64,000 bases of DNA from Dreissena polymorpha (Eukaryota). The stretch covers positions 63,216,738 to 63,280,737 of the forward strand of contig NC_068355.1 of the NCBI RefSeq assembly GCF_020536995.1, read 5' to 3'. The number at the start of each line of letters is the position of its first letter. Position 1 is the stretch's first letter. Below the pieces are notes generated by a model. The model had not been told where the DNA came from. It made no database searches and saw nothing but the letters and a program-made list of their open reading frames with translations. This document shows positions 7,406 through 62,461 of this stretch, one piece after another. A program made the position numbers and the translations under genes.

Positions 7406-7439
7406 TCCCAGAGCACTGCCCTTTTTTTTAAATTGAAGT

Positions 7440-7700
7440 ACAGTTAGTTACTTCAATGACAGCATTGTATAAGAGTATTATGATTATATAGAAATGATTG
7501 TATTAATAATCAGAGAATTCCTCATGTTACATAGTTATATGTACAATGTACATAAACATATGGGGCTATTTTATGATTTTATCGATGACAGCATTGAGAT
7601 GGCTTATATAAGAGTATTATGATTATATAGAAAATTTAATGATTGTAATAATTATCAGAGAAGCCCTCCTGTTACATAGTTACATGTACATGTCAGGGTA
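7440..7700. repeat. Two tandem copies of a ~150-bp repeat (..gacagcattg..ataagagtattatgattatatagaaa..tcagaga..cctc.tgttacatagtta.atgtaca)
   Basis: Direct alignment of 7445-7560 with 7590-7705. Confidence 0.5.
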
Positions 7701-18400: not shown

Positions 18401-19708
18401 TAAGGACCACAAAGCAAGAACCTAAAGGAGCAATCAGTATTATAAAAAAACAAGAGCTGTCTCCATAGGATGACATATGCCCCCACACTTCTATAGATGT
18501 TATGTTGTTTTGAGCTTTGATCCGCAAAATGATCAATTATTCAATGAGAACAGGAATTGTATTTTTAACAATAATTTAGGTTGATTAAATTCGATACAAT
18601 AGACAAACTTGAGACTTACATGGAATTTTTTTTTATCAAGAAGAACTTTGAGTTGTACTTATGTTCTTATAAAAGCTCAAAGCAACAAGAAGTATAATAT
18701 GCGTGAGCGGTTAACAGATGTGTCCTAAATAGTGTATCCGAATACAATGCACTATCCAAATGCTAACCATAACATGTATAGTGAGACAGTTTCCATAACG
18801 AATTGATATGAAATATACACAATTGATAATAATCGCCATGGTATCGAATAGTTCAAAGTTGTTCATTAAGAATTGCAACTTACATGTTAAAAGTAAACTT
18901 TGTTGTCAAATAGGACCGTGGATGTCCGTACTTTACACATCACAATAAATTACAATCTCCTACGCAGTGGTCTCCCTTATACTAGAAGAGACCTCTGCCC
19001 ATTCTATACATAGATGGTGACGTCACTACGTTATTGTCAGTAAAGACCGGTGTGACACAATGGACCTCTGCCTCCACAGGTTGTTCACGTTGGTCCATAT
19101 TTTGGACCAACGTGATTCCAAAATATTTTACTGGTTGAAAATATATTTTTAGGTACGCACTTTGTAAAAAGTTTGTTTATGTAAAAAAATGAAGGTGGTT
19201 ATGTAAAACATAAAAAAATAAACAATATTGAAAAAATGAATTTCGTTTTCCCATGACGCGTAACGGTAATCAACATGGCGGACACATTGCAACGGGACTA
19301 TCGTTACCTATCTCGGTAAGTTTTATTTGTATGTTGTTTATGTATGCGATGCAAAATATCGTAAAAACATATGTCTAGCTAATGTTACATATTTTGCATT
19401 AAACCAACTGTTACTAAAATTTGTCTTGGGTTAATAATGATTTGTTTTTATTCAGTTGTTATGTGTCGCGTTGTATCAATTAAACTGTCAATGCTGTGAA
19501 TAGACTAAAGTAAGGTCAAAGCTCTCCCTGTAGTACAATGTAGTACACTATCCAGCGATGCACTGGTTAGAGATGCGAGTTCAAGTCTTGCCAGGGAATT
19601 GGCCTTCTTTAGTTACTTTTGATGCATTGAATAAGCAACGAAGAACATTTAAAAAAAAATTGTGTGATGATTATTTCCCTTAGTTTTCATTTTGACATTA
19701 AAATTAAA

Positions 19709-20196
19709 ATGTCTTCTGCAACAACATTACAACATATTTTAGATGCCGTTCAAATTTTTGACCCAAATGTTACACCCAAGACAAAACAAATTGAATGTTT
19801 GCAGACAATATTGTGTCATAAAGATGTAATTGTCAATTTACCTGTTGGCTATGGTAAAAGCCTTATTTATCAATGTTTGCCAATGCTTTTATCATCTGTA
19901 TCCAGTTCAACCAATGTAGTTGTTTTAGTTGTTTCTCCACTTACAATTATTCAACAAGATCAAATGCAGATTCTCGCTGAACATCACATTAAAGCTTTCC
20001 GTTTGCCTTTTGGTGATGAGTCTGTTGTCAGCAAAGATGATCAGCAAAAACTTTGTAAGGGAGAATATTCCATAGTCATGTGTCATCCTGAATCTTTACT
20101 TAATAATACCTGGGGAAAAGCTCTTCTGAGAAATGAAGACTTCACTAGCAAAGTTCATGCTGTCGTGATCGACGAGTGTCACATTGTAGAAGATTG
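19709..20196 (+). CDS. First coding exon of a RecQ-like DEAH-box DNA helicase (helicase ATP-binding domain, motifs I-II)
   Basis: Helicase motifs are LPVGYGKSLIYQCLP (motif I-like), VVVSPLTIIQQDQ (Ia-like) and VVIDECHIVEDW (DExH motif II, cf. RecQ DEAHCVSQWGHDFR). ATG at 19709 (alternative ATG at 19667). The exon ends at a strong GTATGT donor at 20197, phase 2. Downstream exons were not located. Confidence 0.6.
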
Positions 20197-21054
20197 GTAT
20201 GTAGTTTTTTTCAATTTAAAGTTTGTACAATTATATTTGATCGTGATACATCTGTGAACTGAAGTACCTCTGTTTGTTTTTTTTTGTATACAATTCTTAG
20301 TTAAATCAAGATGTTTAGTCACAATTCAATAATGCCTATGGTCTCGGATTCTGTACTACACGCCGGGTATGCGAATACTTCGTTTACGGATGGCACTTTA
20401 CTAACAGAGAACAACAAACGCCACGCGCTAGAGGTAAGTTCCTCTGTTTTATTTAAAGTTATATCCTAAAGATTAGTTTTTAAGACAAGACACATGGTCG
20501 AGTTGATAAATGGTGTATCCTTTTGTATTGGGAATACACAATTTCACGGAAGAATGGTACAGTTTTGCCCAAAAATAGAAAATTCGATCGGAAAACAGCA
20601 TAAACTGGATGAACAGTAAACATTTTAACAAAATAAAACTACTTAGAATTATTGCAAGAAATTGTTTGCTATTCCAGCATGTAGAGTAATCACTGTGCTT
20701 CAAATACTGAAATTTTGATAGCATTCAATGAAATATAAACAAAGATAGTGCATTTTGTAATAGGTGGCATACATAAAGTTGCAGCCACTTTGTTTACCGA
20801 TAAAGGGCACTTCAGATTACGGAGACTTTCAACAAAGCGGGCACTCTAATAACTGAGTTGTATCTTCTACCTCAAGTGCATTTATTTATATTATGGCTAT
20901 TCATACGAAACATTTTAAAAATATATATTTCAAAAATCACCTTACTATTAATTTATACTATGTTTATTATAATTGCAATTTTCAAATAAGATAATATTTA
21001 TTATTAAATAATGTGTACGGATAATGCGGATCAACACAATCGTGTTTAATTTTA

Positions 21055-34077: not shown

Positions 34078-34454
34078 CTATGAATAGTTAAAATGTGTGT
34101 TGCATTAAATGTTTTGTTTAAATTAAATACTATTCCAACAAAAGTGAAGTCTACTGTATATTAATAATACAAATAAGAATTATATTGTAAAAAAAGGTCT
34201 ATAAATTCACTTGTGATAATAGAAAATATATATTTTCAATTGTGGCTTCGCCACTCGTAAAAATAATAATTTCTATGATCAATCGTGAAATAAAATCGAT
34301 ATTCTACCTTAACCAACACATATCCTCCATGTTTGTATTATTTTTACTAAAGAAAAATTCCATTTAAATATTTTATAAACAGTACCAGTTTTTATATAAA
34401 TAAAAAATTATCAATTCAGATTTGTGTACAAATATATTAAAGTAGGAAAATCAC

Positions 34455-35323
34455 CTTATATCCCTAGGATTTTCACCAGTACGGGTTTTTGTCTGACGCT
34501 CAGTGTCGAAGGTGATGAATTCTTCACCAGTTTCAAAATCGATTCCAAGGCTGACATCACCCCAGCATAGGGTGTGAATTTCCTTGCCGGTTCTCATCCC
34601 AAAATGGGTTGTACATATAAGCCACAGTGAGTGTAATAGAGCTCTTGGGCTTGATTCTCCCAGAGTTTTAGCTGCGTACATAGCTTCAATATGTTCATTT
34701 GTTAATGCCTGGGCTTGATGCGGTTTATTTCCATAACCTTCTTTTTTCAGAGCTTTTTGTTTACTTTTTAATACTTCCCTCACTTTGGCAAATTCAGGGT
34801 CATTTATCAAAGAGTGCTTGTAGTTCATGTGCCTTAAATGCCTGTCGATTGAGCTTAAAAATGCCCTCAAAGATGTGGGTTCATACTCTGATCCATCTTT
34901 TTTAGTCACACCCAACAAAAACTCGCAGACCAGAGGGTTCAATTCATGAGGAGGTATATTTTCAATATTTCTTGCCTCATTTTTGTGACTTTTTAGGAAA
35001 GTTTTGAAAAGTCTGATGTCATTGTCGGTTTTCTTTTTTGTATTTAAATTTTCGTTTTCAAGCAGAAAGCTATCCACACTTACAGATCTGAAATTCCTTG
35101 TTGGTGTTGATGTTGGGTTTTGTTCTTTTTCTTCCTGTGTTGATGCTGTTACCAGTGGATGTGGGGCTGATGTTGCTGCTCCTGCTGTTGGTGCTGCTGA
35201 TGTTATTTCTTGTGATTTTGAAGCGCTGTCATCATCTTGTTCATTCATTTCATTAAAAAAGTCATCAAAGTCAAAGATATTTGAGAAAAGAAGATTTATT
35301 TCATTGTTTTCCAATTCATCCAT
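34455..35323 (-). CDS. Crypton-like tyrosine recombinase, exon 1: N-terminal acidic region plus SAM-like/N-terminal recombinase domain (MDELENNEINLLF...LRAFLSSIDRHLR...TGENPRDI)
   Basis: ATG at 35321-23. 289 codons to the donor AG|GTGATT at 34455/34454. Predicted total protein ~521 aa across 3 exons. Confidence 0.65.
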
Positions 35324-42545: not shown

Positions 42546-44596
42546 ACTGCAATGAGTTAGTCTATCTATACACTGAGAAACAAATATACTAATTATCATC
42601 ACTTTTCTTTTTTTTGGTAATCTTGGGTGGGTCGTGTCGACAGAGCCGCAGTGCGAGGAGGGGGCACCTCACCACCCCAGCCGACACGCTCCATCCAACA
42701 TTTTTTGTTTTTTAATATAATGCATATATAAAATGGTTGTGATATCTACATTTAAAGGGGTTGTACTGAAGGTTTCTCTATTGAGTTACCTGAGTGCGCA
42801 CTTGATGCGGCTTCCGTCTCTGTGCGGAAGTGTAGTGTCTGCGTGCTTACCCCACTACCGTCGTCGTCGGCTGCTGCGTGCTGGGTGCAGCGACAAAAAT
42901 TTAAAATACCGAGGACCAGCACAGGGGGGGGGGGAGGGTCTCGCGGAACCCGGATACTGTTAGCCCGATTTTTTGGTTTACAAAGGGGGGGATTTTATAT
43001 TTGTCCATATCTTTACATAGTGGTTACAGATGTTCGTTTTTATTTTTATCAAGCGCACCTATCCGTCATTGATTCTAGTAGCGTGCCCTTAGCGTTAAGT
43101 TGCGTTTATGTTGTACGGTCGCGGTTGTTAACGAGACAGGCGGCCGATATATTACATGATTTGGTTGACAGTTATATTCGGTACCGTAATCCCTTCCGTC
43201 GTTTTAGTAAGAGAGTGTTGTTGATGTTTTACTGGGTATCTTGTCAGCCCTTGCCCGTCCGTGGCGTCGTCACAGGGCACATACCAGGGGGCCCCACTGA
43301 CACACAGGAGTGACCCGTTGGCTATGCCCTGCGACGAATAACTATAGGTCGGTTGTCATATCCGCGTTATGCTCAGGCCGTGATAGTACCGTAGGTTCAC
43401 TCTGTGCTGGCCCGGGCGAGCAGCCCCAGTGACATACGGAAGTGACCGTCGTCCGTGCCCGCACAGAGGGTTCCCTTATGGCTATAGTCCACGGGCGGGG
43501 TCCGGCAGACAGGGTAGATGTTATGTAGTTACCTAAATGTGTGTTTAGTCCGGCACCAGAACGCGCTTTATTCGCACTTTTGTAAGTTACGCGATTTGTT
43601 TATACGCATATTTTTGTTATTACGGCTAAGCCTAAGGAAGATAGTTTATGCAAGAAGACTCTGGATAGTTAGTATGCCCTACTGTATCGCTTTATTTTAT
43701 AGATTAAGTGCAGGTATGTATCTAGTTTTACCCTTAATTTTGATTTTAATGCGATTTTCCTTATATCTTGCTTATGCAAGGGAGATAATAGAAATACTCA
43801 AAGTTCGTAAAAATAGTCCTTTCCGTGCATATTTATGTTTGTTTTGCAATATATATGGGAATTAAACCTTAAGTTACTATTAGTATGGGGATGGAGAGAT
43901 ATTGTTACGGATATATGATGTCTGTATAATACATTGGGGTAAATCACTGCTCCCTCCCAATAAGAGCAGCGCTTTATATACTGATATATATACCACGTGA
44001 CCCGCTTGCTTAAGACATCACCCTACTATTTCATGTAAACACAACCCTACCGTTTCAAACAGTAATTGTATAATACTGTGGCTATATTATGAAATACATA
44101 TTGTGCATCTTAATAATCGACTTGTATTATTAAATCATCAAATTATGTACATGAAAATACAATGATCAATATTAAATGCACATACTATGCGCGTGGAACT
44201 TACCGAAAAGTGAACGATTTGCGACCGGGAAACGTACTTTCGTTTTGATGTAAACAATATGAATGTACTCAAAGAATAATGAACCTAAAGGATAAAATAC
44301 CGGCCAAAATCGTCACACTACCCACGCCTCCGATTTAAGCGTCCCGCTTACAATACTCTGTCTAAGTGTTAAACAAATACGTCAACGACATCTTTTATTG
44401 ACGAACAAAATACTACTCCCGGTAGTCATGTTAAAAGCAAATGTTATGACAAAACATGATATCTAATGCTAAATGAATGACCAGTATCCTGATGGGATGA
44501 GAAAAACAAACATGAGTGTGACCTGATGAAACAATGAACAAGAAACAGTAACAATAAACTATACAGCTAACTCTAACACTTCTAAATGTGTCTCAG

Positions 44597-45142
44597 TCAT
44601 TTGGCAGTATGCCCCATGGTTATGTGGATATAGAAACCCATCGCGTCATGGCATGTTTCACCGCAGACATTACATTTCATAGGATTGTCGACACAATGGC
44701 AACCCTTGTGTACGAACATCATGGCCTGGTTGCCGAAGGTGATATCGCACACATCGCATTTGTTTACCCTAGGTTCGTCTGTCTGGGTCTGTACGATACA
44801 GCCAAACACCGTGGGGACCTGTCTTCTCATCGACCTATGGCCTGGAGCGGCAGTTTCAAGTGGGCGATCACAGCTGACCTCGTTTCCCATCCAGGAGCTG
44901 CATGCCTGCTCCACGGCCAGATGCGGCTTCTTAGGAGCCATGACTGGTTCTGGCGCCGTCCGTTTCCTGATTATTCTTCCTACGTTAAACTCTATGCAAG
45001 GTTCTTCCTCTACACCAACTTCGGGGTCGCTTTCAATACCAGTGATCTCGGATTCAAGTTTTAGTCTAGCATTTTCTAGCTTGACATGCTCAAGTTCGGC
45101 TCTTATCCTATCCAAGTCGCTTTGTTCTTGATGTGAAGCCAT
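44597..45142 (-). CDS. C2H2 zinc-finger ORF (181 aa from ATG): N-terminal coiled-coil (DLDRIRAELEHVKLENARLKLESE) and two C2H2 fingers (CDVCDITFGNQAMMFVHKGCH; CNVCGETCHDAMGFYIHITMGH)
   Basis: An uninterrupted ORF between B and A' of the composite element. The track start at 45202 is a TTG. The first ATG (MASHQEQ) is at 45140-42. Confidence 0.45.
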   Translation of the reverse strand: MASHQEQSDLDRIRAELEHVKLENARLKLESEITGIESDPEVGVEEEPCIEFNVGRIIRKRTAPEPVMAPKKPHLAVEQACSSWMGNEVSCDRPLETAAPGHRSMRRQVPTVFGCIVQTQTDEPRVNKCDVCDITFGNQAMMFVHKGCHCVDNPMKCNVCGETCHDAMGFYIHITMGHTAK

Positions 45143-46488
45143 CGTGAGGCTGAGTCGGGATGCTTTAAAGGTCGTCCCAATATATCCCACCGCTGCCACC
45201 AATTTTTGTAACGTGTCTACCGTTCCTTCGGGATATATATATATATATAATGGCTTTTCCTCGGGCTTTCCTTAGCCGTGTGATTTGATAAACAAATAAT
45301 ATAATTTGCCTCTATACAAGTCGGTTCCGTATGCCCTGTGCGACTTGGATTGCTTTGATCACTTGGGTTGACTTGGGTCGACTCGGGTTGACTTGGGTTG
45401 ACTTGGATCAACTTGGGTTGACTTGGGTTAACTTGGGTTGGCTTGGGTCGACTTGGGTCGACTTTGGTTGGCTTGAGTCGACTTGGGTCGACTTGGGTTG
45501 ACTTGGATCGACTTGGGTCGACTTGGATCACCTAGGGTGTCTTGGGTGACTTGGGTCACCCCGGGTGTCTTACACCTATTGCAACGAGTCTGCAGTGTCT
45601 CCCCTCTGCGTTACGCAAGGGAGACAATCAATGTCCCCCGTCTGCGTTTATGCAAGGAAGACAATCGGTCTGTGTTGTACAAGCAACAATCAGTAGCTTG
45701 ACAGACTCAGGCTGACCTACGAGACCTGACACGTGCACTAACTGGAATGGAAACCTTTGACCCGGACTTATATACGAGTCTCTAGGCTACCGATCAAGCT
45801 ATGGTATGTTGTGCGCAAAGTTGCCAGGGTCACCTCCACTCGAAAGTATCCAAAGTCACAGAGATGTCCCTTGCTCAGGCTGACCTAAGAGACCAGAAAC
45901 GTGCACTGTCTTATATTACCAAAGAAAACCTGTGACCCGGACAAAGGTATGAGTCTCTATTGAAGCTACCCAGCAAGCTATGGTGTAGTGCGCAAAGTTG
46001 CTTGGGTCACTTCTACTCAAAAGGCATCCAAAGTCCCAGATAATTTCAATGGTATAAGGTCTCTAATTAATGCAACGTATTTAACGTTGTGAACTGTTCG
46101 ACGATCGAACGCAGAATGCTCCCTCCCCATAAGAGCAGCGCTTTATATACTGATATATATACCACATGACCCGCTTGCTAAAGACATCACCCTACTATTT
46201 CATGTAAACACAACCCTACCGTTTCAAACAGTAATTGTATAATACTGTGGCTATATTATGAAATACATATTGTGCATCTTAATAACCGACTTGTATTATT
46301 AAATCATCAAATTATGTACATGAAAATACAATGATCAATCTTAAATGCACATACTATGTGCGTGGAACTTACCGAAAAGTGAACGATTTGCCAACGGGAA
46401 ACGTACTTTCGTTTTGATGTAAACAATATGAATGTACTCAAAGAATAATGAACCTAAAGGATAAAATACCGGCCAAAATCGTCACACT

Positions 46489-49150: not shown

Positions 49151-50515
49151 ATTATGTAATGCAGCGTTCTTGCCGAGTGTGTAGATCTATGAGCGTTAAG
49201 ATACGATATTGGATTTTAATAAAAATGACTAACGACCATGAACGTTTCAAACTGCTTATTTATTTGTTAATTTCTGTTTCTCTTGTGTTCAAAAATTATT
49301 ATATATTTATATATAATATTACATGTATATACAGGCACCCACTGTCTAACATGATTCTGTGTTCTATTAACACTGATCCTTTTGAACAGATACAGATTGT
49401 TTCCAATATAGCGATATTAAAATCTTCAATATATTTGACTGATCAAAGACATATTAATTCACACAAGTGCATTAATACAATACATGCGGCTTACGCTTAA
49501 AAAGTTACTTTTTATGTGAGACTGTTAGTAAAACTGTAGTATTGAGTATCAAAATTAACCATTTAAAAGTAATAGCATTCAAAACCACGTACTTTTTTTT
49601 CAAAACCACGTACTCGAAAGAATTTTAAGTTAGATTTCTGTTAAAAAGTGACGTGGAGATGGTTCCAATAAGAAAAACTGAGCGAGACTGACTTGGAGCA
49701 AAAAAAAATGGCTCCTTATATACTCTGTAATGGGATCGACCAAAAATCTGGGGCGAAAAGTGGTCGAAAAATGGTCGAAAGGTGGTCATTGACCAACTAT
49801 TGGCCAATGACCATAAAACATGGGCAAAAAGTGGTCGGTGACGAAATAACTGGTCAATGACGTCACTACGACTTAACTACATTCGAACGTCATCTTAACA
49901 ACTGACTGAGTAAAACAGATAAATGGCAGCCACCTTGGACTTAAAATAAGAATTAAACAGGAGCGCAGTTAAATTATGACATTTACAATAGCGGTGCATA
50001 ATACTATGACATGATGCCGCCGTTTTCTATTCATGGCTGATAACCTTGACTTGAAATAATTCAACCGTTACGAACACAGGAAGTAAGATGGCTGACGGCT
50101 GACAAAAATGTGATTTCAATCAAAGGAGTTTTACGATTGCAAAAGGAATAATGGCATCTAATGCAAAAAGGAGCAAACAAATTTACAGACTAAGTAGGAA
50201 TTGATTACATGCAATGGATATTACCAATCACAAACGTGAGTAAGAAGTTGAAAAAATGCTTTAAGGATCAGTGTAATGAAATTTCGCGAGTCGTAAAGTT
50301 ACTTGCAATGAAAAGTCGGAACAAAACCAAGCCCAGGATGAAATACATATTAAGTATAACATTGTGCTTATAAAATAATAAAATTTGATAAGCATAGTTT
50401 ATACAAAATCAACGCTGGACATGACTACTCGCGGTGGGTGCCTGTTCTAAACAACAACAAGCTAAGGTCACATAAAAATCATATCAATTTAACAATCATG
50501 GGGTTCTTCATTACC
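49151..50515 (-). repeat. 3' LTR of gypsy copy 1 (~1.36 kb). The boundary next to ORF-A is approximate.
   Basis: Homologous to 57734-59085. On the minus strand it contains TATATAAGGAG (plus 49714-49724), CCAAT, TGACGTCA palindromes and repeated TGGTCGAAA motifs (plus 49740-49870). The putative PPT GAGCGAGGGGG is at plus ~50530-50545. Confidence 0.4.
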
Positions 50516-50684
50516 CCCTCGCTCGTTATTGACTCTCCTGAGTCAATAATAAAAAAAAGGAAACTACAAGAACAATCAAGTTAAATGTCTCTTTCTCCAT
50601 TGTCAGTTTGTAACTTTTAACTTAAAACTGTTAAGATTATAATTTAATAATTGAAAAAAAAGTTCATGTACTGAGTCTTTAAAG

Positions 50685-51356
50685 TCATTTTCTAATGTTT
50701 TTAGCAACACTTTTCACGGATAAACGGTTCTCTCTTCGCCGCAACCTGTCCATGTCGTCTCTCACCTGGAGCACGGCCGTGGTTACCCGTTGCAGTAAGT
50801 CGTTCTGACGCTCCATCAACCGCGTATGTCTGCTCATTTCTTTCGCAATCCTTTCTACACCTGCCGCCATATCCGAGGTTAGTTTCTGGATGTTCCCCAG
50901 GATTAGGGACGTTGGCACTGCTGTCTCAACATGCTCCTCTGGAGCTTTCGGAAGGGATCTAGTGGAAGATGCTGATTGCCTGACCTTCTTGGCTGAAGTA
51001 GGCTGAACCTCAGGATCTACCCATTTAGCCGTAGTAGAGCCACTACACATCTTTTGCGCCAGCAACTCCAGAGGCTGTTCAACAAGGAAATCCAAACGTG
51101 AGGTATCATCCAGCTGCAGGATGATCTCATCCTGGATGGGCGTTCCTGGTGTCGCTAATGACCTGATCAACTTGGCACCCGCAGTGGAATTTGGAGTCTT
51201 CACAGGCTCGAACAGCTGGGCCTGACGTGCTGCCTTCGGTGTAGGCCTATAGACTGAGACTTCACTAGAGATTTGGTTCTGAATGAACCAGCCATTCGAG
51301 ATGTCTTGAAACGGACGCGGCAGATGGTTGGGCTCATAGAATTGATTCCTGAACAT
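50685..51356 (-). CDS. Retroelement extra ORF-A (223 aa): unknown function with a C-terminal coiled-coil (..ERIAKEMSRHTRLMERQNDLLQRVTTAVLQVRDDMDRLRRRENR..)
   Basis: It lies between integrase and the 3' LTR on the same strand as pol. A second, decayed copy is at 59244-59870. Confidence 0.45.
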   Translation of the reverse strand: MFRNQFYEPNHLPRPFQDISNGWFIQNQISSEVSVYRPTPKAARQAQLFEPVKTPNSTAGAKLIRSLATPGTPIQDEIILQLDDTSRLDFLVEQPLELLAQKMCSGSTTAKWVDPEVQPTSAKKVRQSASSTRSLPKAPEEHVETAVPTSLILGNIQKLTSDMAAGVERIAKEMSRHTRLMERQNDLLQRVTTAVLQVRDDMDRLRRRENRLSVKSVAKNIRK

Positions 51357-51518
51357 GTTCAGACCCGTTGGCGCGGCAGTGACTGGTGACTGATTTGAGG
51401 CGCTTGAGTAGGTGTGGGCCTTTCTGGTAGTAGAGGAGTTTCTTCCGGGACATCAAACCACCCTTCTTCTCCTTCTTTCGCATGTGGCTCTGATACAGGG
51501 TCTCCCAAACGTTCAATG

Positions 51519-51824
51519 TCAAACTGAGACACTGAACGGATTATCTGACTTATACAGGTAGCGGCGTAAATCAGTCACGCCCCTCAGCTTCGCCTCCTTA
51601 ACATGAGGCGCATACTTGGTCACATGATCAAGAAGGTGTTGCTGTGTTTGACACCGGAAGCTGCACAGGCTGCATGAGAATGGTACTTGGTCAAAAGAAA
51701 CATGGTACTTAAAAAAATGGCCCGCAAGTCGCCCCTTTCTGTCAATCTTCTGACACTTCTTACACCGGTACTGCACCCTGCTTGGCTTCTTCGCTGTCTC
51801 CATATCCTGCAAATATAGCATCAT
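51519..51824 (-). CDS. Retroelement extra ORF-B (101 aa): C2H2-like zinc-finger motifs (YRCKKCQKIDRKGRLAGHFFKYH; FSCSLCSFRCQTQQHLLDHVTKYAPH)
   Basis: It sits ~380 bp downstream of the integrase end on the same strand. A second copy is at 60999-61256. Track ORF 51334..51522 bridges B to A in another frame, which suggests one ancestral ~390-aa ORF broken by a frameshift. Confidence 0.45.
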   Translation of the reverse strand: MMLYLQDMETAKKPSRVQYRCKKCQKIDRKGRLAGHFFKYHVSFDQVPFSCSLCSFRCQTQQHLLDHVTKYAPHVKEAKLRGVTDLRRYLYKSDNPFSVSV

Positions 51825-52203
51825 GGATTGAAGGGCGAGTTATCGGTCTAGTCGAGGAAACCAATCTGTCTTTGATCAATAACACTTTGTTTTGACCCCC
51901 TTAATTATGCTGACTTTATAGTATCTTTATCACAAAGTTAGACCTCTTGTGGATGACTGTTATACCATTAACATTCAAGTTACTTATTTATATGTTTATT
52001 TTTAAGTCTTGCGAACTCGTCAAGTATCTGTGATATTATACAATTCTTTGTTTTGTGAGTTTATGTATATATTTATATTTATCAATAGCGTTCTATGTTA
52101 ATGTGTTAACGTTTAATGTTAAATAATTTTATGCGGACAATCTATGTTACAAAAATTCAACATATTCATCAAGTGTTTACAATAATTGCTTTTAAGCCCT
52201 ATT

Positions 52204-55200
52204 TTATTTCACTCCGAGCTTATTTTTTAGCTTTCTTCGCACTGTGCACAACCATGACGGAACACATTTTCCAACGTAGGGCTTCAACTTATCATGGTGT
52301 ACCGTTTTCTTTTGCCCATTTGCATCCATTTGAATTGTCAAATTTATTGTTGATGGCATGTTTATAATAACATATGGTCCATCATAATGAGGTTCCAGCT
52401 TGAATGTAACACCAACTTTTCTGGTTTCCCGTAAGAGCCATACAATGTAATCAACATTGTATTTATTAAATGCCACTCTTAAGTCATAGGTTTCCTTATT
52501 TCGTTCAGCTTTCTTCCCTAGAACAATACGAGCGAGCTCATGGGCTCGACTTGTTTGCTGCCTCAACCTCAATGCGTGTCCCGCTGCAGAATCCCCGTCT
52601 TCTGCGGTTCTAGGAAGGCCGTAAATGACATCAAGAGGCAGACGGACTTCTTGTCCAGTTGCAAGCATGTTTGGCGAAGACCAGTGCTCTCATGCGGAGT
52701 TGCTCGATATGCTCCTGCGATACTTCCTAGATGCAAATCCCATTCGCTCTGTTCAACCGATAAATATGCGCGAATCATTTTGAGAAGAGAACGATTGAAT
52801 TGCTCAACTTGGCCATTGCCTTTTGGGTTGCGCGGGCTGATGCGAGTCTTCTTGATCCCGAAGATAGAACACATTTTCTGTAATAACTGACTCTCAAATG
52901 CTGAACCCTGATCTGAATTGATGGACAGATGCGTACCCCAGCGCGAAATAAAATTATCCACTATCTTATCCACACTCTCCTCAGCTGTCTGTGTCTTTAC
53001 CGGAAACACCTCTACGTACTTGGTAAAGTGATCAGACATAACCAAGATGTGACTGTTACCACAGCAGTCACAGGAAAAGGGCCAACAAAATCCACTGCCA
53101 ACACATCCCAAGGAGCACCTGCCTTTAGTCGTCCCAACGGCGCCTTGGTTTCTTGACAGGGGCCTTGTCCCTCTCACATACATCACACGCTTGGATGTAC
53201 AGCCGGATATCTGTTTTTAGGTTAGACCAATAGAAGGATCTCACCACGACAGCTCGGGTTCTTTTAATACCCTGATGACCAGCTGTAACAGCATTATGAG
53301 AATGCCTTATAATCGATTCTCTAATTTTCTTTGGAGTCACAAGCTGCAAATTGTCCTAGGAGGTTAATGAATCGCATCTTCCCCTGCGATACAACACACC
53401 TTCTTTTACCAGCAACTGATCCCAAATTATCAAATAATGTTTGGATTCGGGACATTCGTCAAGCATTTCACTATTGTCGGGTTTCTTGGCAGCGTTTACT
53501 GCTCTGGCAATCGTCCCGATATCACTGTCTTCATCCTGCATTGCAGCCATCTCTTGACAGGTGTACTGACTGCACCATGGATTTGATCTGAGCACTGCCC
53601 GTTAAGCAGTTGGAACTATGTTTTCAGAAACCACTGCAGTTGGCTCAGTTTCCAGATATACATCTTGTGGGCCTGGAAGACTTGCCATCATAGATGCTAC
53701 CCTCTTTTAGTGGCTTACTCGTGTCGACCAACGGGCATTCACAGTCTCGCGGTTTGCATCTGGATAAAGCGTCACAGTGTGGCTGTTTAAGACCTGGACG
53801 GTATTCAATCGCGAAGTCGAACGCCGCTAAAATGTCGGTCCATCTTGCGATTTTGTCTCTGGGTTCATGCTGAAGAGCCATACTAAGGCTTGATGATCGG
53901 TTCTGACGGTGAACCTTCTACCCAGCAGGTATTGTCGAAAGTACTGCACGAAATACACAACCGCTAGTAGCTCCTTTTCGGTAATGCAGTAATTCTTCTC
54001 TGACCTGCTAAGCGCTCGGCTCGAATAGGATATCACGCGCTCACGATTTTCTTGGTACTGAGCCAGTACAGCTCCAATGCCCACACCTGATGCATCTTCG
54101 TCGAGGTGGAACATGCCTTCGTTTACGGGATAACTTATTACTTCCGGGCTGATCAGGGCTCGTTTGAGTGCACTAAACGCCTTCTCTTGGGCTTCTATCC
54201 ACTAAAACTTTGCCTCCTTTTTGGTCAAATCTACCAGTGATCTTGTCAGTTTTGCAAAGTCCTTGATAAACCGACGATAATACGACCCTGAAGCCACGAA
54301 CTGCCTGACTTGTTTGGGGTTTTGAGGCGTCGGCCAGCCAGTGATTCTAGCTACAATGGGGGGGGGGCGGGTTAAATACCTTTATTTGACACCAAATGCC
54401 CAGAAATAATACTTCTGTTTGAAGCATGTGGCATTTGTCGGGTTTCAACTTCAATCCTGCCTCTTGGACCCGGGATAGGACTTCGTCTACACGCACAAGA
54501 TTCTGCTCAAAGGTAGAGCCATAAACAATGATATCGTCGATATAGACGAGGCATGTGTTCCACTGTAGATGTTGTAGAGCTATTTCCATGGTCCGCTGGA
54601 AGGTGCTGGCTGCATTATTTAGACCAAAGGGTATTCGAGTCATCTCATATTGGCCGTATTTACATACGAAGGAGATCTTTGAGATGTCTTCCTTCTTCAA
54701 AGGAATCTGAAAGTAGCCTGAAGTTAAATCAAAACTACTGAACAGATGTGTGCCCGCTATAGCATCAAGGCAGTCCTGAACGCGGGGCAGAGGAAAGCCA
54801 TCAGGTTTGACTAAAGCGTTAACTTTCCGGTAGTCCACACATGAACGGATGCTTCCATTTTTCTTTTTAACTAAGACAATTGGACTTGCCCAAGAGGAGA
54901 CACTCTTTTGAATCACACCCATTTTAAGGTCTTCAATTGCGCCTTTTTCTTCGTCTGCGTAAGCTAGCGGAACAAGACGTGGTCTTTGCTTAATGGGTGC
55001 TGCATCGCCTGTGTTTATCGAGTGCTCAGTTAAATTAGTTAAACCTAAATCCCAATCATTTGTCGAGAATGTCCTGGAACTTGATGAGTAACCCTGCGAC
55101 TGCTTCAACTTCGGCCTGCGTCTTGTCTTTGGTTGATCTCTTCAGTAGAGATATGAGGTGCGGCGGGACTTGACCAGGTTTCGCCGGTGTCGGAAGTTTG

Positions 55201-57500
55201 GAGTTTTCTTTAATTGTATTCGGCCGACGTGCCATGACTCTTCGTACCGATGAAAAATTGCCTTCCTCGTCCATGTATTCTTCTTATGATATCACGGACA
55301 CGACTCTTTCAATCTTTTCTGCCCTTCCGATCACTGCATTTTGTCTCAGCTGAACTTCAGTCATGAAAGGGTTAAGTACCTTGATCGTGCAGGCTGGCGA
55401 TTTGTTTAAATTGACTAAAGTTGACGTAACGGATACTTTTCTTTGAATTGCTGCGTTGGTTCAACTACATAGTCCGCCTCTTTGTCATCATCATCAGTCT
55501 CAAACCGCTCAACGAACACCTTTACCACAGCTTCAGCTTTAGCTGGCACCGTCATGTCACTCGCCACGACTACTTGCCTTGTCCTACCGACCTGGAAAAC
55601 TGGTATTTCGCTCCCATCTTACTAACACAATCTTGTTCTTGCTTAACAAGATGTCTGCTGGCCTACCCTGTTTCCGTCTGAGAAAATCATAACCTAGCAA
55701 GGCGTCGTCTTCTATTTCCGCTACTATTACCTCTTCAGTCATCGTCACTGGACCAAACTTCAACTTCAATCTCGCCTGACCTGCATCTCTAATGGGAGCA
55801 CCCGCGCTCCAATCAGACAGGCTGACTTTTAAATCATCGGTCGACTCTCGGGACGCAATTGTTCAAACACTCTTTTTGATACAATTGTCCTTGTCGCCCT
55901 AGTATCTGTGGTAAACGTTACGGGTATATCATTTTCCATCCCTCTGACATAAACCCCATCTGCCAGCTGCTTCGCTCTCTCTTATCTCACCACCTCGTTC
56001 CCTCCCAAGCGATCCACCGTTTTGCTGGGCTGGCCTCCTTCATCTTCTACTGGGACCTCCCTATGGCCGCAAGGGTTGGCCCATTCTCGTTTAAAGGATT
56101 CTCACTTCTCTTCAAGCTCTCGGGCACTGTTTCTTTAACATCTCTCTAAGTCTGGTCAATCAAGCATTCTCGAGCAAAATGGCCTTTTCCATGGCAGCGG
56201 TTACATTCCACTTCTCTTCTACTTCTTCTTTCCCCATTGCCACTTCTTGTTCTTCCTTCCAAGGTATCCAGCCGTTTTAATATTTGTTGTAAGACTCCGT
56301 CGTTGCTTTCTGTTGAGTCCGGCTGAGGCCTCTTATGCCACTTACTTGTCTTGTTGTATGATGTTTGCTTGTTTGGAGCTGACTGTGCTTCGCAGAAAGA
56401 CTCGTCTTTTTCAACCGCTCTCCTTGTTGCTCTTTTATGACCCCGCTCGCCCTCAAATCCCGCTCTGGTTTGCATTAGTGTCAATACGTTGTAGACCGCT
56501 TCATCAATCGTTGTAGGCTCTTTATGGTATTCTACCTCAAACCTAACTTCTTCATCTTGCAAGCCGTCAAGGAATCTGCAAACTAGGTATTCATGTTTGG
56601 TTCTTCTTTTGCGGTGAGGGTGCGCTCTATCGTATAGCATCTTGAGCTCCGCGGCATAAGACTCTGGTGTATCACCATGCCTTTGGTCACGCCGTGTGAA
56701 CTTGACCGCAAATGGTTTTGAAGATTGAACTACTCTAAATCTGCTATTTAGCTACGCTTTAAGATCCTGGTAAGTGTGGAGCGTTGCAGGTGAGAGCTGT
56801 GTGAAGGCGAATTCGGCTGCTTGACCTTCTAGTCTTTGTAGAAGTTGGTCAAGGCGCATATCATCACTCCAGCCAAACCGATCTGAGATCACATCAAAAC
56901 CAGTCACCCAAACTTTCCAATCTTCTTTACCGTCAGATGGTGGGATACGCATGCGCTCGTGTGGCCTAGATATGCGTGACTCATTGAGGCCATGCGACGA
57001 CAAGTGGCCACAATATCGGTCGTTACTAAAGATTTGATCTCCTGAAGGGTAATGGCGTCTCAATAAGTTGGGCATGTGTTGCATTGGGGCGCGATTTGTG
57101 TTTCGATTTTCTGCATAGTTAAATTGATGGATGCTTACAAAAGGTTGGCTTGATACGGGCCTACTAGGTTCACTACATCGTCCTCTGGGCTGACCGTATT
57201 CTGAAGGCAATATTCGTGTCTCAAGACTGTTGCAATCAGACTGTGTTATCCGTTCATCGGATGACTGCATGTACCCGGATTGCTGGGGCCTTTGCACACG
57301 GGAGCTACCTGCTTAACAGAGGAATGCTCTGTCTGGGATAGGCGCGCCTCGAGTTCCGCTTGACTTGACTTTATTCCTCTTACTTCGGACACCAGATCCC
57401 TGAGCGCTCCATAAATGACCTCGATGGCTTCGCGGGGATTGGTTGACCGCCCCGACGACCCTCCGTACGGTCACGCCCCTGAGCTAACCTGAGTCTCCAT
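52204..57500 (-). pseudogene. Degenerate gag-pol of gypsy copy 1 (frameshifted, with stops)
   Basis: The track ORFs are gag 56752..57297 and 56146..56640; PR 55584..55769; RT 54347..55108; RNase H 53827..54114 and 53645..53881; IN 53125..53349, 52569..53186 and 52204..52668. Confidence 0.8.
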
Positions 57501-57712
57501 GATGTTATGCTCAGTTGAATGATTGAAGTAAACAAGTGTCGTTGATATATTGTTACAGATTCAATGTTATTATTAGTAGTTATTTTTCACGGAGTGACCA
57601 CTATGTCAATGTTTTAATATCAAACGGAATGGGTTGGTAGCGTTTTTTAAAATATTATTTTCAAACTCGGAACGAATCATTGAATACTTAATTATTTAAT
57701 TTTTTTAAAGTT

Positions 57713-57730
57713 TTCCACCGCCGATCACCA
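57713..57730 (-). promoter_or_regulatory. Putative primer-binding site TGGTGATCGGCGGTGGAA (minus strand), 3 nt after the LTR end
   Basis: It is complementary to an RNA ending ..TTCCACCGCCGATCACCA-3'. It lies immediately upstream of gag on the minus strand. Confidence 0.35.
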
Positions 57731-57733
57731 TAA

Positions 57734-59085
57734 ATTATGTAGCGTTCTTGCCAATGTGTAGATCTATGAGCGTTGAGATACGATATTGGATTTTAATAGA
57801 AATGACGAAAGACCATGAACGTTTCAAACTGCTTATTTATTTGTTTATTTCCGTTTCTCCTGTGTTCAAAAATTATATAATATTACATGTATATACAGGC
57901 ACCCACTGTCTAACATAATTCTGTGTACTATTAACACTGATCCTTTTGAACAGATACAGATTGTTTCCAATATAGCGATAATAAAATCTTCAATATATTT
58001 GACTGATCAAAGACAGATTAATCCACACACGTGCATTAATACAATACGTGCGGCTTACGCTTAAATAGTTACTTTTTATGTGAGACTGTTAGTAAAACTC
58101 TAGTATTAAGTATTAAAATAAACCATTTAAAAGTAATAGCATTCAAAACCACATACTCGAAAGAATTTTAAGTTAGATTTCTGTTAAAAAGTGACGTGGA
58201 GATGGTTCCAATAAGAAAAACTGAGCGAGACTGACTTTGAGCAAAAACATGGCTCCTTATATACTCTGTGATGGGATCGACCAAAAATCTTGGGCGAAAA
58301 TTGGTCGAAAATGGTCGAAAGGTGGTCATTGACCAACTATTGGCCAATGACTAAGAATACATGGGCAAAAAGTGGTCGGTGACGAAATAACTGGTCAATG
58401 ACGTCACTACGACTTAACTACATTCGAACGTCATCTTAACAACTGACTGAGTAAAACAGACAAATGGCAGCCATCTTGGACTTTAAATAAGAATTAAACA
58501 GGAGCGCAGTTAAATAATGACATTTACAATAGCGGTGCATAATACCATGACATGATACGGGCGTTTTCTATTCATGGATGATAACCTTGACTTGAAATAA
58601 TTCAACCGTTACGAACACAGGAAGTAAGATGGCTGACGGCTGACAAAAATGTGTTTTCAATCAAAGGAGCTTTACAATTGCAAAAGGAATAATGTCATCT
58701 AATGCAAAAAGGAGAAAACAAATGAACAGACTTCGTAGGAATTGATTTCATGCAATGGATATTACCAATCACAAACGTGAGTAAAAAGTTGAATAAATGC
58801 TTTAAGGATCAGTGTATGTAATAAAATTTCGCGAGTCGTAATGTTACTTGCAATAAAAAGTCGGAACAAAACCAAAGCAAGGATAAAATACATATATAGT
58901 ATAAAATTGTGCTTATAAAATAATAAAATTTGATAAGCATAGTTTATACAAAAACAACGCTGGGCATGACTTCTCGCGGTGGGTGCCTGTTCTAAACAAC
59001 AACAGCAACAACAAGCTAAGGTCACATAAAAATCATATCAATTAAACAATCATGGGGTTCTTCATTACCCCCTCGCTCGTAATTG
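57734..59085 (-). repeat. Shared LTR: 5' LTR of gypsy copy 1 and 3' LTR of truncated upstream copy 2
   Basis: ~95% identical to 49151-50515. It is followed on the minus strand by the PBS and gag of copy 1, and preceded by ORF-A2, ORF-B2 and IN of copy 2. Confidence 0.45.
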
Positions 59086-62000
59086 ACTCTCCTGAGTCAA
59101 TAATAAAAAAAGTAAACTACAAGAACAAAAAAGTTATATGTCCCTTTCTCCATTGTCCAGTGTCAATTTGTAACTTTTAACTTAAAACTGTTAAGATTAT
59201 AATTTAATAATTGAAAAAAAGTTCATTTACTGAGTGTTTAAAGTCATTTTCTTATGTTTGTAGCAACACTTTTCACGGATGAACGGTTCTCTCTTCGCCG
59301 CAACCTGTCCATGTCGTCTCTCACCTGGAGCACGGCACTGGTTACCCGTTGCAGTAAGTCGTTCTGACGCTCCATCAACCGCGTATGTCTGATCATTTCT
59401 TTTGCAATCCTTTCTACACCTGCCGCCATATCCGAGGTTAGTTTCTGGATGTTCCCCAGGATTAGGGACGTTGGCACTGCTGTCTCAACATGCTCCTCTG
59501 GAGCTTTCGGAAGGGATCTAGTGGAAGATGCTGATTGCCTGACCTTCTTGGCTGAAGTAGGCTGAACCTCAGGATCTACCCCTTTAGCCGTAGTAGAGCC
59601 ACTACACACCTTTTGCGCCAGCAACTCCAAAGGCTCTTCATCAAGGAAATCCAAACGTGAGGTATCATCCAGCTGCAGGATGATCTCATCCTGGATGGGC
59701 GTTCCTGGTGTCGCTTATGACCTGATCAACTTGGCACCCGCAGTGGAATTTGGAGTCTTCACAGGCTGGAACAGCTGGGCCTGACGTGCTGCCTTCGGTG
59801 TAGGCCTATAGACTGGGACTTCACTAGAAATTTGGTTCTGAATGAACCAGCCATTCGAGATGTCTTGTCGCTTTAATGGAATTACCATTTGTATTCATTT
59901 GCTTCTTAATATTAAATCACGTAAACTTGTTTTATTAGTAGCACAGCCCGATTAATATTTTTATTTAGTACTGCCCTTGGAATTTGTTCACGTCATTATG
60001 TCATTATGGATTTTTGTGACGTCATACGACCGACTTTCCCAGTTGTAATCTACATGCATAGGTCATTGGGTTTATAACGTTCCATTTTATTTATATTTTC
60101 TCTCTGATAGGCGTTTCTTGTTTGATTTAATTATTTTTAATTTGTTTAGCAGTCACATAAACAACCAAGCTATGTAATATGGAATTTTTACACCCATTAT
60201 TGCTGCTTCTTCCTGTATTTGCGCGATGATTATCTGAGATATTAACTCTATGATTCTACATTCTCAAATCTTTTCTATAAAGAAGGAATGTAGTTGACAA
60301 TTGTTAATAGTTTTATTTGATCGTTCGTCAAAAAGTTGTAATTCTGTTACTCTTGTATCTTCAATGCAATTGAGTAATTAAATAGTAATTAAATTGAATG
60401 CGTTTTAATTCCCTTTTATTATTGTTTAATTTGAGTTACAATGCTATGACGTTAAATTTTATTTACACTTGAATGTATTATGAATATTGCTGGGCCAAGT
60501 GTGAGGTTGAGCGCTCTATAACCAGGTTTAAACCCCCAATGCTTTGCATTGACCGTTCCAAGGCGGTGACCCCAGCTTTATTCATATTTTGTGTTTATGT
60601 TGGTTTGTATTGTGCTGTATTGTGCTGTTTTGTACTGTTTGGGCAATCGGTCACTTGCCTTAAATAAAGGACCAACTAATTGTTTTTAATGAAAATTCAA
60701 TACTGCTCCAGCAGCTGGAGTTTCACTTCTTTATATTGAAACGGACGCGGCAGATGGTTGGGCACAAAGGGTTGATTCCTGAACATGTTCAGACCCGTTG
60801 GCGCGGCAGTGACTGGTTACTGATTTTAGGCGCTTGAGTAGGTGTGAGCCTATCTGGTAGTAGAGGAGTTTCTTCCGGGACATCAAACCGCCCTTCTTCT
60901 CCTTCTTCCGCATGTGGCTCTGACACAGGGTCTCCCAAACGTTCAATGTCAAACTCGAAGACACTGAACGGATTATCTTACTTATGCAGGTAGCGGCGTT
61001 AATCAGTCACGCCCCTCAGCTTCGCCTCCTTAACATGAGGTGCATACTTGGTCACATGATCAAGAAGGTGTTGCTGTGTTTGACACCGGAAGCTGCACAG
61101 GCTGCATGAGAATGGCACTTGGTCAAAAGTAACATGGTACTTGAAAAAAATGGCCCACGTGTCGCCCCTGTCTGTCAATCTTCTGCGATTCTTACACCGG
61201 TACTGCACCCTGCTTGGCTTCTTCGCTCTCTCCATATCCTGCAAATATAGCATCATGGATTGAAGGGCGAGTTATCGGTCTAGTCGACGACTAATCTGTC
61301 TTTGATCAATAACACTTTGTTTTGACCCCCTTAATTATGCTGACTTTATAGTACCTTTATCACAAATTTAGACCTCTTGTGGATGACTGTGATACCATTA
61401 ACATTCAAGTTACTAATTTATGTTTATTTTTAAGTCTTGCGAACTCGTCAAGTATCTGTGATATTATACAATTCTTTGTTTTGTGAGTTTATGTATATAT
61501 TTATATTTACCAATAGCGTTCAATGTTAATGTTTTAACGTTTTATGTTTAATCATTTTATGCGGACAATCTATGTAACAAAAATTCAACATATCCATCAA
61601 GTGTTTACAATAATTGCTTTTAAGCACTATTATATTTCACTCCGAGCTTATTTTTTTTAGCTTTCTTCGCACTTTGCACAACCATGACGGAACACATTTT
61701 CCAACGTAGGGCTTCAACTTTTTATGGTGTACCGTTTTCTTTTGCCCATTTGCATCCATTTGAATTGTCAAATTTATTGTTGATGGCATGTTTGTAATAA
61801 CATATGGTCCATCATAATGAGGTTCCAGCTTGAATGTTGCACCAACTTTTCTGGTTTCCCGTAAGAGCCATACAATGTCACCAACATTGTATTTATTAAA
61901 TGCCACTCTTAAGTCATAGGATTCCTTATTTCGTTCAGCTTTCTTCCCTAGAACAATACGAGCGAGCTCATGGGCTCGACTTGTTTGCTGCCTCAACGTC

Positions 62001-62340
62001 AATGAGTGTCCCGCTGCAGAGTCCCCGTCTTCTGCGGTTCTAGGAAGGCCGTAAATGACATCAAGAGGCAGACGGACTTCTTGTCCAGTTGCAAGCATGT
62101 TTGGCGACAGACCAGTGCTCTCATGCGGAGTTGTTCGATATGCTCCTGCGATACTTCCTAGATGCAAATCGCATTCGCTCTGTTCATCCGATAAATATGC
62201 GCGAATAATTTTGAGATAAGAACGATTGAATCGCTCAACTTGGCCATTGCCTTTTGGGTTGCGCGGGCTGGTGCGAGTCTTCTTGATCCCGAAGATAGAA
62301 CACATTTTCTGAAATAACTGACTCTCAAATGCTGAACCCT
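59086..62340 (-). mobile_element. Truncated gypsy copy 2 (3' portion only): IN C-terminal fragment 61637-62340, ORF-B2 60731-61256, ORF-A2 59244-59870 (disrupted), interrupted by an ~865-bp insertion at 59874-60738
   Basis: Collinear with 50516-52950 of copy 1. Homology ends abruptly at 62340. Track ORFs 61637..62305, 60999..61256, 60731..60964 and 59244..59654. Confidence 0.65.
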
Positions 62341-62461
62341 GATCTGAATGGATTGCTCAGGACTGTAACTTGTTAGCGCAGAATAGAAGTCCATACAAGT
62401 AAGGCTCAGCCAAGTTATTAAGTTTAATGGGCTCATATTTTTTAATGCAGTAAGTTTTTAT

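Follow-up and report, generated by a model that had tools for sequence, protein, structure and literature searches.

Accessory ORF3s, open reading frames (ORFs) additional to gag and pol, are a known kind of gene in long terminal repeat (LTR) retrotransposons. The present analysis deals with an ORF3 whose type itself appears to be new, and which is carried by two decayed Ty3/gypsy elements on the minus strand of a 64,000-nucleotide stretch of the Dreissena polymorpha genome (contig NC_068355.1, positions 63,216,738 to 63,280,737), hereafter the window, to which bare coordinates refer. Errantiviruses such as Drosophila gypsy and ZAM, and their metazoan relatives, are env-carrying Ty3/gypsy elements whose ORF3 encodes a membrane glycoprotein and is known to be expressed from a spliced subgenomic RNA. 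Such an RNA is predicted for the mollusc ORF3 too, which differs in opening with two C2H2 zinc fingers and in lacking a membrane segment. Cer1 of Caenorhabditis elegans encodes CERV, a non-env nuclear protein whose coding region follows pol and whose mRNA is spliced (PMC10309623). In CERV, helices that form coiled coils accompany a putative zinc finger rich in cysteine, and the genomic RNA depends on this protein for its export (PMC10309623). It resembles the mollusc protein in being a non-env product encoded after pol; the two are compared by description, no sequence relationship being known. Unlike the mollusc ORF3, CERV is a five-exon product whose N-terminus is common with gag; it occurs only in Caenorhabditis and combines a C4-type loop with domains of G-protein-like and ring-forming type. 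In bdelloid rotifers, the Vesta, Juno and TelKA elements possess lineage-specific non-env ORF3s, including a coiled-coil type, with modular exchange and spliced messages (PMC5408684). The rotifer ORF3 types comprise env, GDSL lipase, DEDDy exonuclease, transmembrane (TM) and coiled-coil (CC) proteins, none of them a zinc-finger protein as in molluscs (PMC5408684). Full-text literature searches, including papers on molluscs, annelids, rotifers, Cer1, env carriers and MDG1, yielded no account of a zinc-finger ORF3 in gypsy-type elements, Repbase and GyDB lying outside this search.

Two relic elements with a single ORF3

The window most probably contains dead tandem gypsy copies of a lineage whose three genes are gag, pol and a single ORF3 (about 370 aa), and with regard to the anatomy of the copies and their membership of this lineage our confidence is high. 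One full but decayed element (copy 1, 59064-49160) and a 5'-truncated second one (copy 2, 62353-59065) occupy the minus strand of 49160-62353. Their features are given below in order of coordinates.

49160..50510, minus: 3' LTR of copy 1, 1351 bp, from TGAAG... to ...GCTGCA
50511..50520, minus: polypurine-tract-like GAGGGGGTAA, directly 5' of the 3' LTR
50685..51803, minus: ORF3 remnant of copy 1, with ORF-A and ORF-B as its two halves (tblastn with P0002)
51804..52203, minus: spacer between pol and ORF3 of copy 1, 400 nt, stop-rich
51807..51818, minus: 3' splice-site-like CTATATTTGCAG of copy 1, 3 nt 5' of the ORF3 ATG
52204..55969, minus: decayed pol of copy 1 (protease, reverse transcriptase (RT), RNase H, integrase; Pfam and tblastn with L001 pol)
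53186-52204, minus: integrase of copy 1 (Pfam)
54114-53827, minus: RNase H of copy 1 (Pfam)
55108-54347, minus: RT of copy 1 (Pfam)
56050..57297, minus: decayed gag of copy 1 (tblastn with L001 gag, ORF list)
57715..57730, minus: decayed primer-binding site (PBS) TGGTGATCGGCGGTGG, 7 nt past the middle LTR
57738..59064, minus: middle LTR, 1327 bp, 5' LTR of copy 1 and 3' LTR of copy 2
59065-59074, minus: second polypurine-tract-like copy, before the middle LTR
59244..59867, minus: ORF3 remnant of copy 2, C-terminal part (tblastn with P0002)
59868..60735, no strand: AT-rich insertion in the ORF3 of copy 2, 868 bp, foreign to the element
60736..61235, minus: ORF3 remnant of copy 2, N-terminal part, with two stops and one frameshift, finger 1 lost
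61239-61250, minus: copy 2 equivalent of the 3' splice-site-like signal
61637..62353, minus: integrase C-terminal part of truncated copy 2 (Pfam, repeat comparison, tblastn)

The accessory gene was first described as two extra ORFs, ORF-A (101 aa, 51824-51519), similar to C2H2 zinc fingers, and ORF-B (223 aa, 51356-50685), a coiled-coil protein, lying between integrase and the 3' LTR of copy 1. Database searches with the two ORFs returned homologues, namely single proteins that span both halves: P0002 (372 aa, D. polymorpha DPMN_137095, from a cluster of 21 members) and P0003 (368 aa, from a 9.1-kb metagenome contig). ORF-A and ORF-B share one frame, with three stops in between, and P0002 is colinear in tblastn with 51803-50688, its residues ~93-137 being out of frame in copy 1. 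Copy 2 reads this stretch correctly (FEFDIERLGDPVSEPHAEEGEEGRFDVPEETPLLPD). Judged from these alignments, the two ORFs are the halves of one ORF3 parted by compensating frameshifts, and a single gene of about 370 aa takes the place of the two that had been proposed. In copy 1, the true start codon lies at 51803 and opens METAKK, whereas the MMLYLQD that ORF-A has ahead of it, seven codons long, is a translated pyrimidine tract with CAG. ORF-B matches the D. polymorpha GenBank protein DPMN_006583 at 100% identity. Intact homologues in L001-L006 and L011-L014, loci considered in the next section, are likewise single ORFs of 333-699 aa with N-terminal fingers and a C-terminal helix.

The two ORFs of copy 1 had also been called still open beside a decayed gag-pol. 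Both are present and gag-pol has indeed decayed, but the wording misleads, since with residues ~93-137 out of frame and three stops the ORF3 has decayed like gag-pol, and it is broken in both copies. In copy 2, the damage consists of stops, a frameshift, the destruction of the first finger, and the 868-bp insertion, for which neither terminal inverted repeats nor an ORF nor a second copy within the window was found. The common layout claimed for both copies holds as integrase end, coding remnant and LTR, with one ORF3 instead of two ORFs.

The arrangement itself rests on two duplicated blocks, 49159-51308 against 57737-59867 (93% identity) and 51306-52922 against 60736-62353 (95.4%); no further copy of either block occurs elsewhere within the 64-kb window. 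Along the minus strand, the order is copy 2 (integrase C-terminal part, ORF3), LTR, copy 1 (PBS, gag, pol, ORF3, polypurine tract), LTR. The preliminary description had recognised two elements with one common LTR, in an LTR-internal-LTR-internal array, and the middle LTR (59064-57738) does serve both copies. The shared LTR would have arisen most simply by unequal LTR-LTR recombination, in keeping with the comparable divergence of the LTRs (95.0% identity between the 3' and middle ones) and the duplicated internal parts (96.1-96.9%). In copy 1, Pfam recognises RVT_1, RT_RNaseH and rve in succession on the minus strand, while tblastn with the pol of L001 recovers at least eight frame-broken pieces; gag is 67% identical to that of L001 across 56952-56050. 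Gag followed by protease, RT, RNase H and integrase, the order that defines Ty3/gypsy elements, is found in copy 1 and its relatives, and the intact relatives L001-L005 have a PEG10/Retrotrans_gag-type gag before these pol domains. The homology of copy 2 breaks off sharply at 62353, within the integrase core. ORF3 was also considered as a read-through or fusion product of pol and rejected, the spacer of copy 1 being stop-rich. Scans of the window for tRNAs and against Rfam gave no match.

The 3' end of the LTR was placed where the two LTR copies diverge, at ...GAACGCTRCA. For the 5' end, the window by itself gives no answer, since the internal region of copy 2 precedes the middle LTR; it was set at the conserved junction of GAGGGGGTAA with TG, by analogy with the corresponding polypurine tract-LTR junctions of L003 and L005. 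In these two relatives, the 3' LTR opens with TGAT... right after GGGGG(A)TAA and closes with GTAACA. In the window, the junction of GAGGGGGTAA with TGAAG occurs twice, and both LTRs run TGAAG...GCTRCA, with the TG...CA ends of LTRs. The LTR pairs of L003 and L005 are 99.5% identical and bounded by AT-rich 4-bp target-site duplications (TSDs), ATAT in L003 (BLAST-aligned LTRs at 2747-4073 and 12031-13357, true start TGATG) and ATAA in L005. TAATTTA lies between the middle LTR and the decayed PBS TGGTGATCGGCGGTGG. The intact PBS, TGGTGGCAGCGGTGGGAT, is present in L001, L002 and L004, and with one mismatch in L003; it is presumably complementary to the 3' end of tRNA-Leu(AAG). Some env-carrying Ty3/gypsy clades also use a tRNA-Leu primer site (PMC13524379).

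ORF3 in a mollusc element lineage

The genomic surroundings of ORF3 homologues were examined at decreasing similarity, and the contexts are as follows.

L001: ORF3 90% identical to P0002
L006, L007: ORF3 about 40-45%
L002: ORF3 about 40% in the fingers
L003: ORF3 about 40% in the fingers (tblastn)
L004: ORF3 context with pol upstream
L005: ORF3 of 699 aa
L011: ORF3 of 585 aa
L012: ORF3 context on a circularly permuted contig
L013, L014: ORF3 contexts with pol upstream

Of the 14 contexts whose upstream DNA could be used, 13 (L001-L007, L011-L014 and the two window copies) show pol followed at once by ORF3 in the same orientation, and this synteny persists from 90% down to about 30% ORF3 identity. 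In L001-L007 and L011-L014, gag and a protease-RT-RNase H-integrase pol are found directly upstream, with a spacer of 76-686 nt, and in L003 and L005 the ORF3 is internal to the LTRs. No direct repeats were found in L001, since this contig is a circularly permuted single period. On this comparative evidence, ORF3 is a genuine gene of the element lineage. The earlier view that it is an accessory module and not a chance insertion is borne out by homologues that, from 90% to about 30% identity, stand directly after pol and within LTRs, and the conserved synteny excludes the case that had been named as its refutation, an unrelated transposon with TSDs and terminal inverted repeats (TIRs) around 50685-51830.

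An exhaustive HMMER search gave 334 clusters at 50% identity (E <= 1e-3), most of them alike over the first ~100 residues and many with members of 300-700 aa. The named hosts are all molluscs, namely, Dreissena polymorpha, Mya arenaria, Mercenaria mercenaria and the gastropod Gigantopelta aegis. One further member lies on a contig of a 'Candidatus Thiodiazotropha' metagenome-assembled genome; as this bacterium is a symbiont of lucinid clams, host contamination is likely. A profile-based word search with the finger alignment returned 28 matches with Dreissena as the sole named host, and a metagenome scan with a narrow ORF3 alignment returned five loci. Two database proteins combine the family with other domains. 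In Mercenaria LOC123564515 (P0142), the RefSeq gene model fuses integrase C-terminal domains to ORF3 fingers, and in G. aegis XP_041379412 (P0128), annotated as BTBD6-like, the finger domain is joined to BTB-BACK-PHR domains; both are probably retroelement sequence merged into gene models.

A different situation is encountered in Mya arenaria LOC128226528 (L015:10001-17611, CP111014.1), a cellular gene of five exons that has neither gag nor pol within 10 kb. Its last exon (L015 16511-17608) is a complete ORF3-like module preceded by tttatattttccag, and its upstream exons encode an ALS2CR8/CARF-type domain. Dreissena LOC127844546 (P0042) is homologous across the junction and 42% identical to the Mya protein. 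In these ALS2CR8-ORF3 fusions, either a host gene captured ORF3 as an exon and domesticated it, or ORF3 itself derives from such genes.

The similarity between L001 (1-9099) and the window element (49160-59064) is uneven. Gag-pol and R-U5 are only 58-76% identical, whereas identity is 81-99% across ORF3, U3 and the ~200 nt that precede ORF3. The L001 integrase is closer to those of L006 and L007 (72-73%) than to that of the window (62%), while its ORF3 is closer to the window (88-90%) than to L006 and L007 (48-66%). This mosaic reflects either the exchange of an ORF3 and U3 module, as in a recombinant RNA genome, or a metagenome contig assembled as a chimera with one switch. Within the module, silent sites have also diverged to differing degrees: third codon positions differ in 37 of 92 codons of the finger part (window 51803-51525 against L001:6645-6920) versus 43 of 235 in the rest, and the non-coding 200 nt upstream of ORF3 are 88-91% identical.

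Protein, putative splice signal and possible function

Across 73 N-terminal domains, residues C13, C16, H28 and H33, and C43, C46, H59 and H66 (P0002 numbering) are invariant or nearly so, with spacings of C-x2-C-x11-H-x4-H and then C-x2-C-x12-H-x6-H; P40, F48, L56, L82 and P88 are likewise conserved. In the PDB, the profile of this domain matches CTCF, Ikaros and Zif268 over their tandem C2H2 fingers, with a whole-sequence E of 8e-13 for CTCF and an i-E of about 0.01 for its single stretches. In an AlphaFold2 model of P0002 built with 28 homologues, residues 10-100 (pLDDT >90) form two beta-beta-alpha units with an extra helix and strands, and the Cys2-His2 ligands combined with this predicted fold are those of classical C2H2 fingers. 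The mollusc domain has in common with CTCF, Ikaros and Zif268 the C-x2-C-x11/12-H-x4/6-H ligands, the predicted fold and the variable recognition-helix positions. Unlike classical tandem C2H2 proteins, ORF3 has only two fingers, unusual His-His spacings of 4 and 6, and a conserved extension of ~35 residues (helix, NP(Y) motif, strands) that packs on the fingers. In finger 2, the framework positions are fixed and the recognition-helix positions have an entropy of 2.8-3.5 bits; finger 1 carries a conserved basic K/R-x-R...K patch.

Residues 105-295 of the model are mostly disordered, apart from a more confident block at 121-130 that holds LPxWL. A single helix of ~60 residues follows (298-358, pLDDT 93), in which I, L, V and M are overrepresented at registers 0 and 3/4 with heptad periodicity; in the model, it is a probable coiled coil. 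The full-length alignment reveals further family-wide motifs, LPxWL past an acidic stretch, TP[LI]QDE and DPLL, as well as NTRAIR inside the helix and a basic C-terminal tail, KEN...[KR]SV[VI]xK. The zinc-finger assignment of the preliminary description was right, and its coiled-coil assignment probably so, as the invariant ligands, the CTCF/Ikaros profile matches and the modelled helix indicate. No signal peptide was found in ORF3 and, among 12 members, no clear membrane segment (maximum Kyte-Doolittle 19-residue means of 0.6-1.6, the two highest, ~1.6, being borderline). Between copy 1 and L001, the finger part differs at 6, 5 and 37 first, second and third codon positions, respectively, with an omega of 0.024; omega is 0.34 for the remainder of ORF3, and the window copies compared with each other give 0.71, as expected of pseudogenes. 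The finger domain has thus evolved under strong purifying selection.

Immediately 5' of the ORF3 ATG, a pyrimidine tract and YAG recur across element lineages: ttattttgcag/gat/ATG in L001, tctgtcttccag/tcc/ATG in L002, ttgcttacag in L004, ttttgttacag/aca/ATG in L006 and, at the second in-frame ATG, tgtattttcag/aaa/ATG in L003. An acceptor was called when at least 8 of 12 nucleotides were pyrimidines, followed by YAG, with no internal AG and within 12 nt of the ATG. Five of the first six independent lineages pass this rule, compared with 4.2% of 1213 other ATGs in the same elements (binomial tail about 7e-6). With the rule unchanged, three of four later loci pass (L011 at 7 nt, L012 at 9 nt, L013 at 0 nt), and an acceptor-like site 0-9 nt before the ATG is present in 8 of 10 lineages overall. 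The window copies, with 7 of 12 pyrimidines, fall just below the threshold, which their intact relative L001 passes. Translation of ORF3 from a spliced subgenomic mRNA, with the acceptor a few nucleotides before the start codon, is thus a prediction that we regard as reasonably likely, and spliced messages are usual for retroelement ORF3s (PMC5408684).

As to function, the ORF3 protein is proposed to regulate its element from within the nucleus, as an oligomer that binds nucleic acid. This reading is suggested by the two-finger basic domain with variable recognition positions, the acidic and hydrophobic linker motifs, the oligomerising helix and the basic tail, and cellular relatives that fuse the module to an ALS2CR8/CARF-type domain place it in a nuclear/DNA context. 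The first candidate for its activity, advanced tentatively and by analogy, would be a transcription-factor-like activator acting on its own LTR. Foamy virus Tas/Bel1 and HTLV (human T-cell leukaemia virus) Tax, transactivators of complex retroviruses, are regulators that work in the nucleus; their genes lie 3' of pol or env, and their messages are spliced. Their DNA-binding or targeting part, acidic region and oligomerisation match the appearance of ORF3; they have no homology to it and are without C2H2 fingers. A further-reaching idea, more doubtful than the activator itself, is that mollusc-wide 'complex' gypsy elements might possess their own dimeric two-finger C2H2 transcription factor, specific for the LTR, made from spliced RNA and exchanged between lineages together with U3.

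Several observations weigh against the interpretation favoured here. Both window copies are old, dead and non-functional relics. L008 contains a frame-broken ORF3 homologue (5984-7032, 30-36% identity) with no pol similarity in 5.9 kb upstream, and is the sole context without pol. With regard to the acceptor, L005 and L014 fail the rule (ttccag lies 13 nt upstream in L014), the ATG used for L003 was chosen post hoc, and L011 alone yielded a strong leader donor (CAG/GTGAGT) when 8 of 9 consensus positions were required to match. Pfam scans of ORF-A, ORF-B and 28 family members gave nothing above threshold, zf-C2H2-type families included: the zf-C2H2 match has an E of 0.008, and Zf-C2H2_ZNF451 reaches at best 2.3e-5 among the 28 members, with 15.9-17.9 bits for ORF-A against a cut-off of 29-30. 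Foldseek searches of PDB and BFVD returned generic, non-significant zinc-finger matches (best E 0.2). Finally, the functional proposal is read from domain architecture, and two-finger C2H2 modules are also able to bind RNA or protein.

Alternative explanations bear on the gene as well as on its function. That the lineage has two separate accessory genes, for a ~100-aa zinc-finger protein and a ~220-aa coiled-coil protein, would suit the two open ORFs of copy 1 and the GenBank models DPMN_006583 and DPMN_006593, which annotate the halves separately. With both ORFs in one frame, a frameshifted linker between them that copy 2 reads correctly, and intact homologues that are all single ORFs, this is extremely improbable. 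Hardly any credence can be given either to an unrelated transposon or host gene fragment inserted in one ancestral element and then copied. Such an origin would find some support in the cellular genes of Mya and Dreissena with an ORF3-like terminal exon and in L008 without neighbouring pol; it is opposed by the pol-ORF3-polypurine tract-LTR order in 13 of 14 contexts, over ~30-90% ORF3 identity and several mollusc hosts, by the absence of TIRs or TSDs around the ORF, and by the strong purifying selection seen within element copies.

The main functional rival to an LTR activator, and a less likely one, is an RNA binder in the manner of Rev, Rex or Cer1 CERV, which would promote export or packaging of the unspliced genomic RNA. 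A spliced ORF3 message would leave the element in need of an export route for its unspliced RNA, and the basic patch of finger 1 would suit RNA binding. CERV, at the same position, spliced, and with a putative zinc finger and coiled coils, serves genomic RNA export (PMC10309623). However, the ORF3 fingers resemble DNA-binding tandem C2H2 units, the acidic and hydrophobic linker motifs are more like activation or interaction motifs, and no nuclear export signal was identified in ORF3, all of which makes this role unlikely. A tether of the pre-integration complex to chromatin or DNA sites, or a counter to host silencing, would draw on the DNA-binding-type domain, the oligomerising helix and conserved short motifs able to recruit host factors, and the integrase of the lineage has no chromodomain in Pfam; against it, the TSDs of L003 and L005 are simply AT-rich 4-mers, and we hold it to be quite improbable. 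An envelope-like or fusogenic protein for cell-to-cell spread, as in errantiviruses or with the sORF2 of the MDG1 group, can be practically dismissed, given a basic zinc-finger domain at the N-terminus, the lack of a signal peptide and of a clear membrane segment in the 12 members, and no structural match to viral glycoproteins in Foldseek. Activation of the LTR by ORF3 remains our preferred, tentative reading.

Further features of the window and significance

Outside the elements, a long tandem-repeat array at 5802-7447 is open in several frames on both strands, with repetitive pseudo-ORFs that reach 544 aa. Further along, a tandem array of 10-bp units (45331-45568) and an ORF on the minus strand whose C-terminus is C2H2-like (44597-45202) are enclosed by the two copies of a 300-bp direct repeat, 44000-44299 and 46169-46468, which share 98% identity. 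Two isolated ORFs, at 19664-20257 and 34451-35323, look like gene or transposon fragments, one with the helicase-like DExH motif VVIDECH and the other of 290 aa with an acidic N-terminus.

Non-env accessory genes are rare and poorly understood in animal LTR retrotransposons, and the cases that have been studied, Cer1 CERV and the sORF1 and sORF2 of MDG1, each brought new biology. Here, hundreds of sequence clusters, from bivalves and at least one gastropod, share one conserved type of ORF3. With regard to annotation, ORF3 is now split or mislabelled as host proteins named 'C2H2-type domain-containing' or 'BTB/POZ-like'. As a retroelement gene with a predicted built-in acceptor, it may offer an example of a route to a host terminal exon, and should the picture of 'complex' mollusc gypsy elements be true, the acceptor and the single-exon structure would have let hosts capture ORF3 as the terminal exon of ALS2CR8/CARF-type genes. 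In molluscs, whose transposons have received little study and whose retroelement activity has been linked to transmissible clam leukaemia, ORF3 provides a candidate for a nuclear regulator encoded by the element itself.

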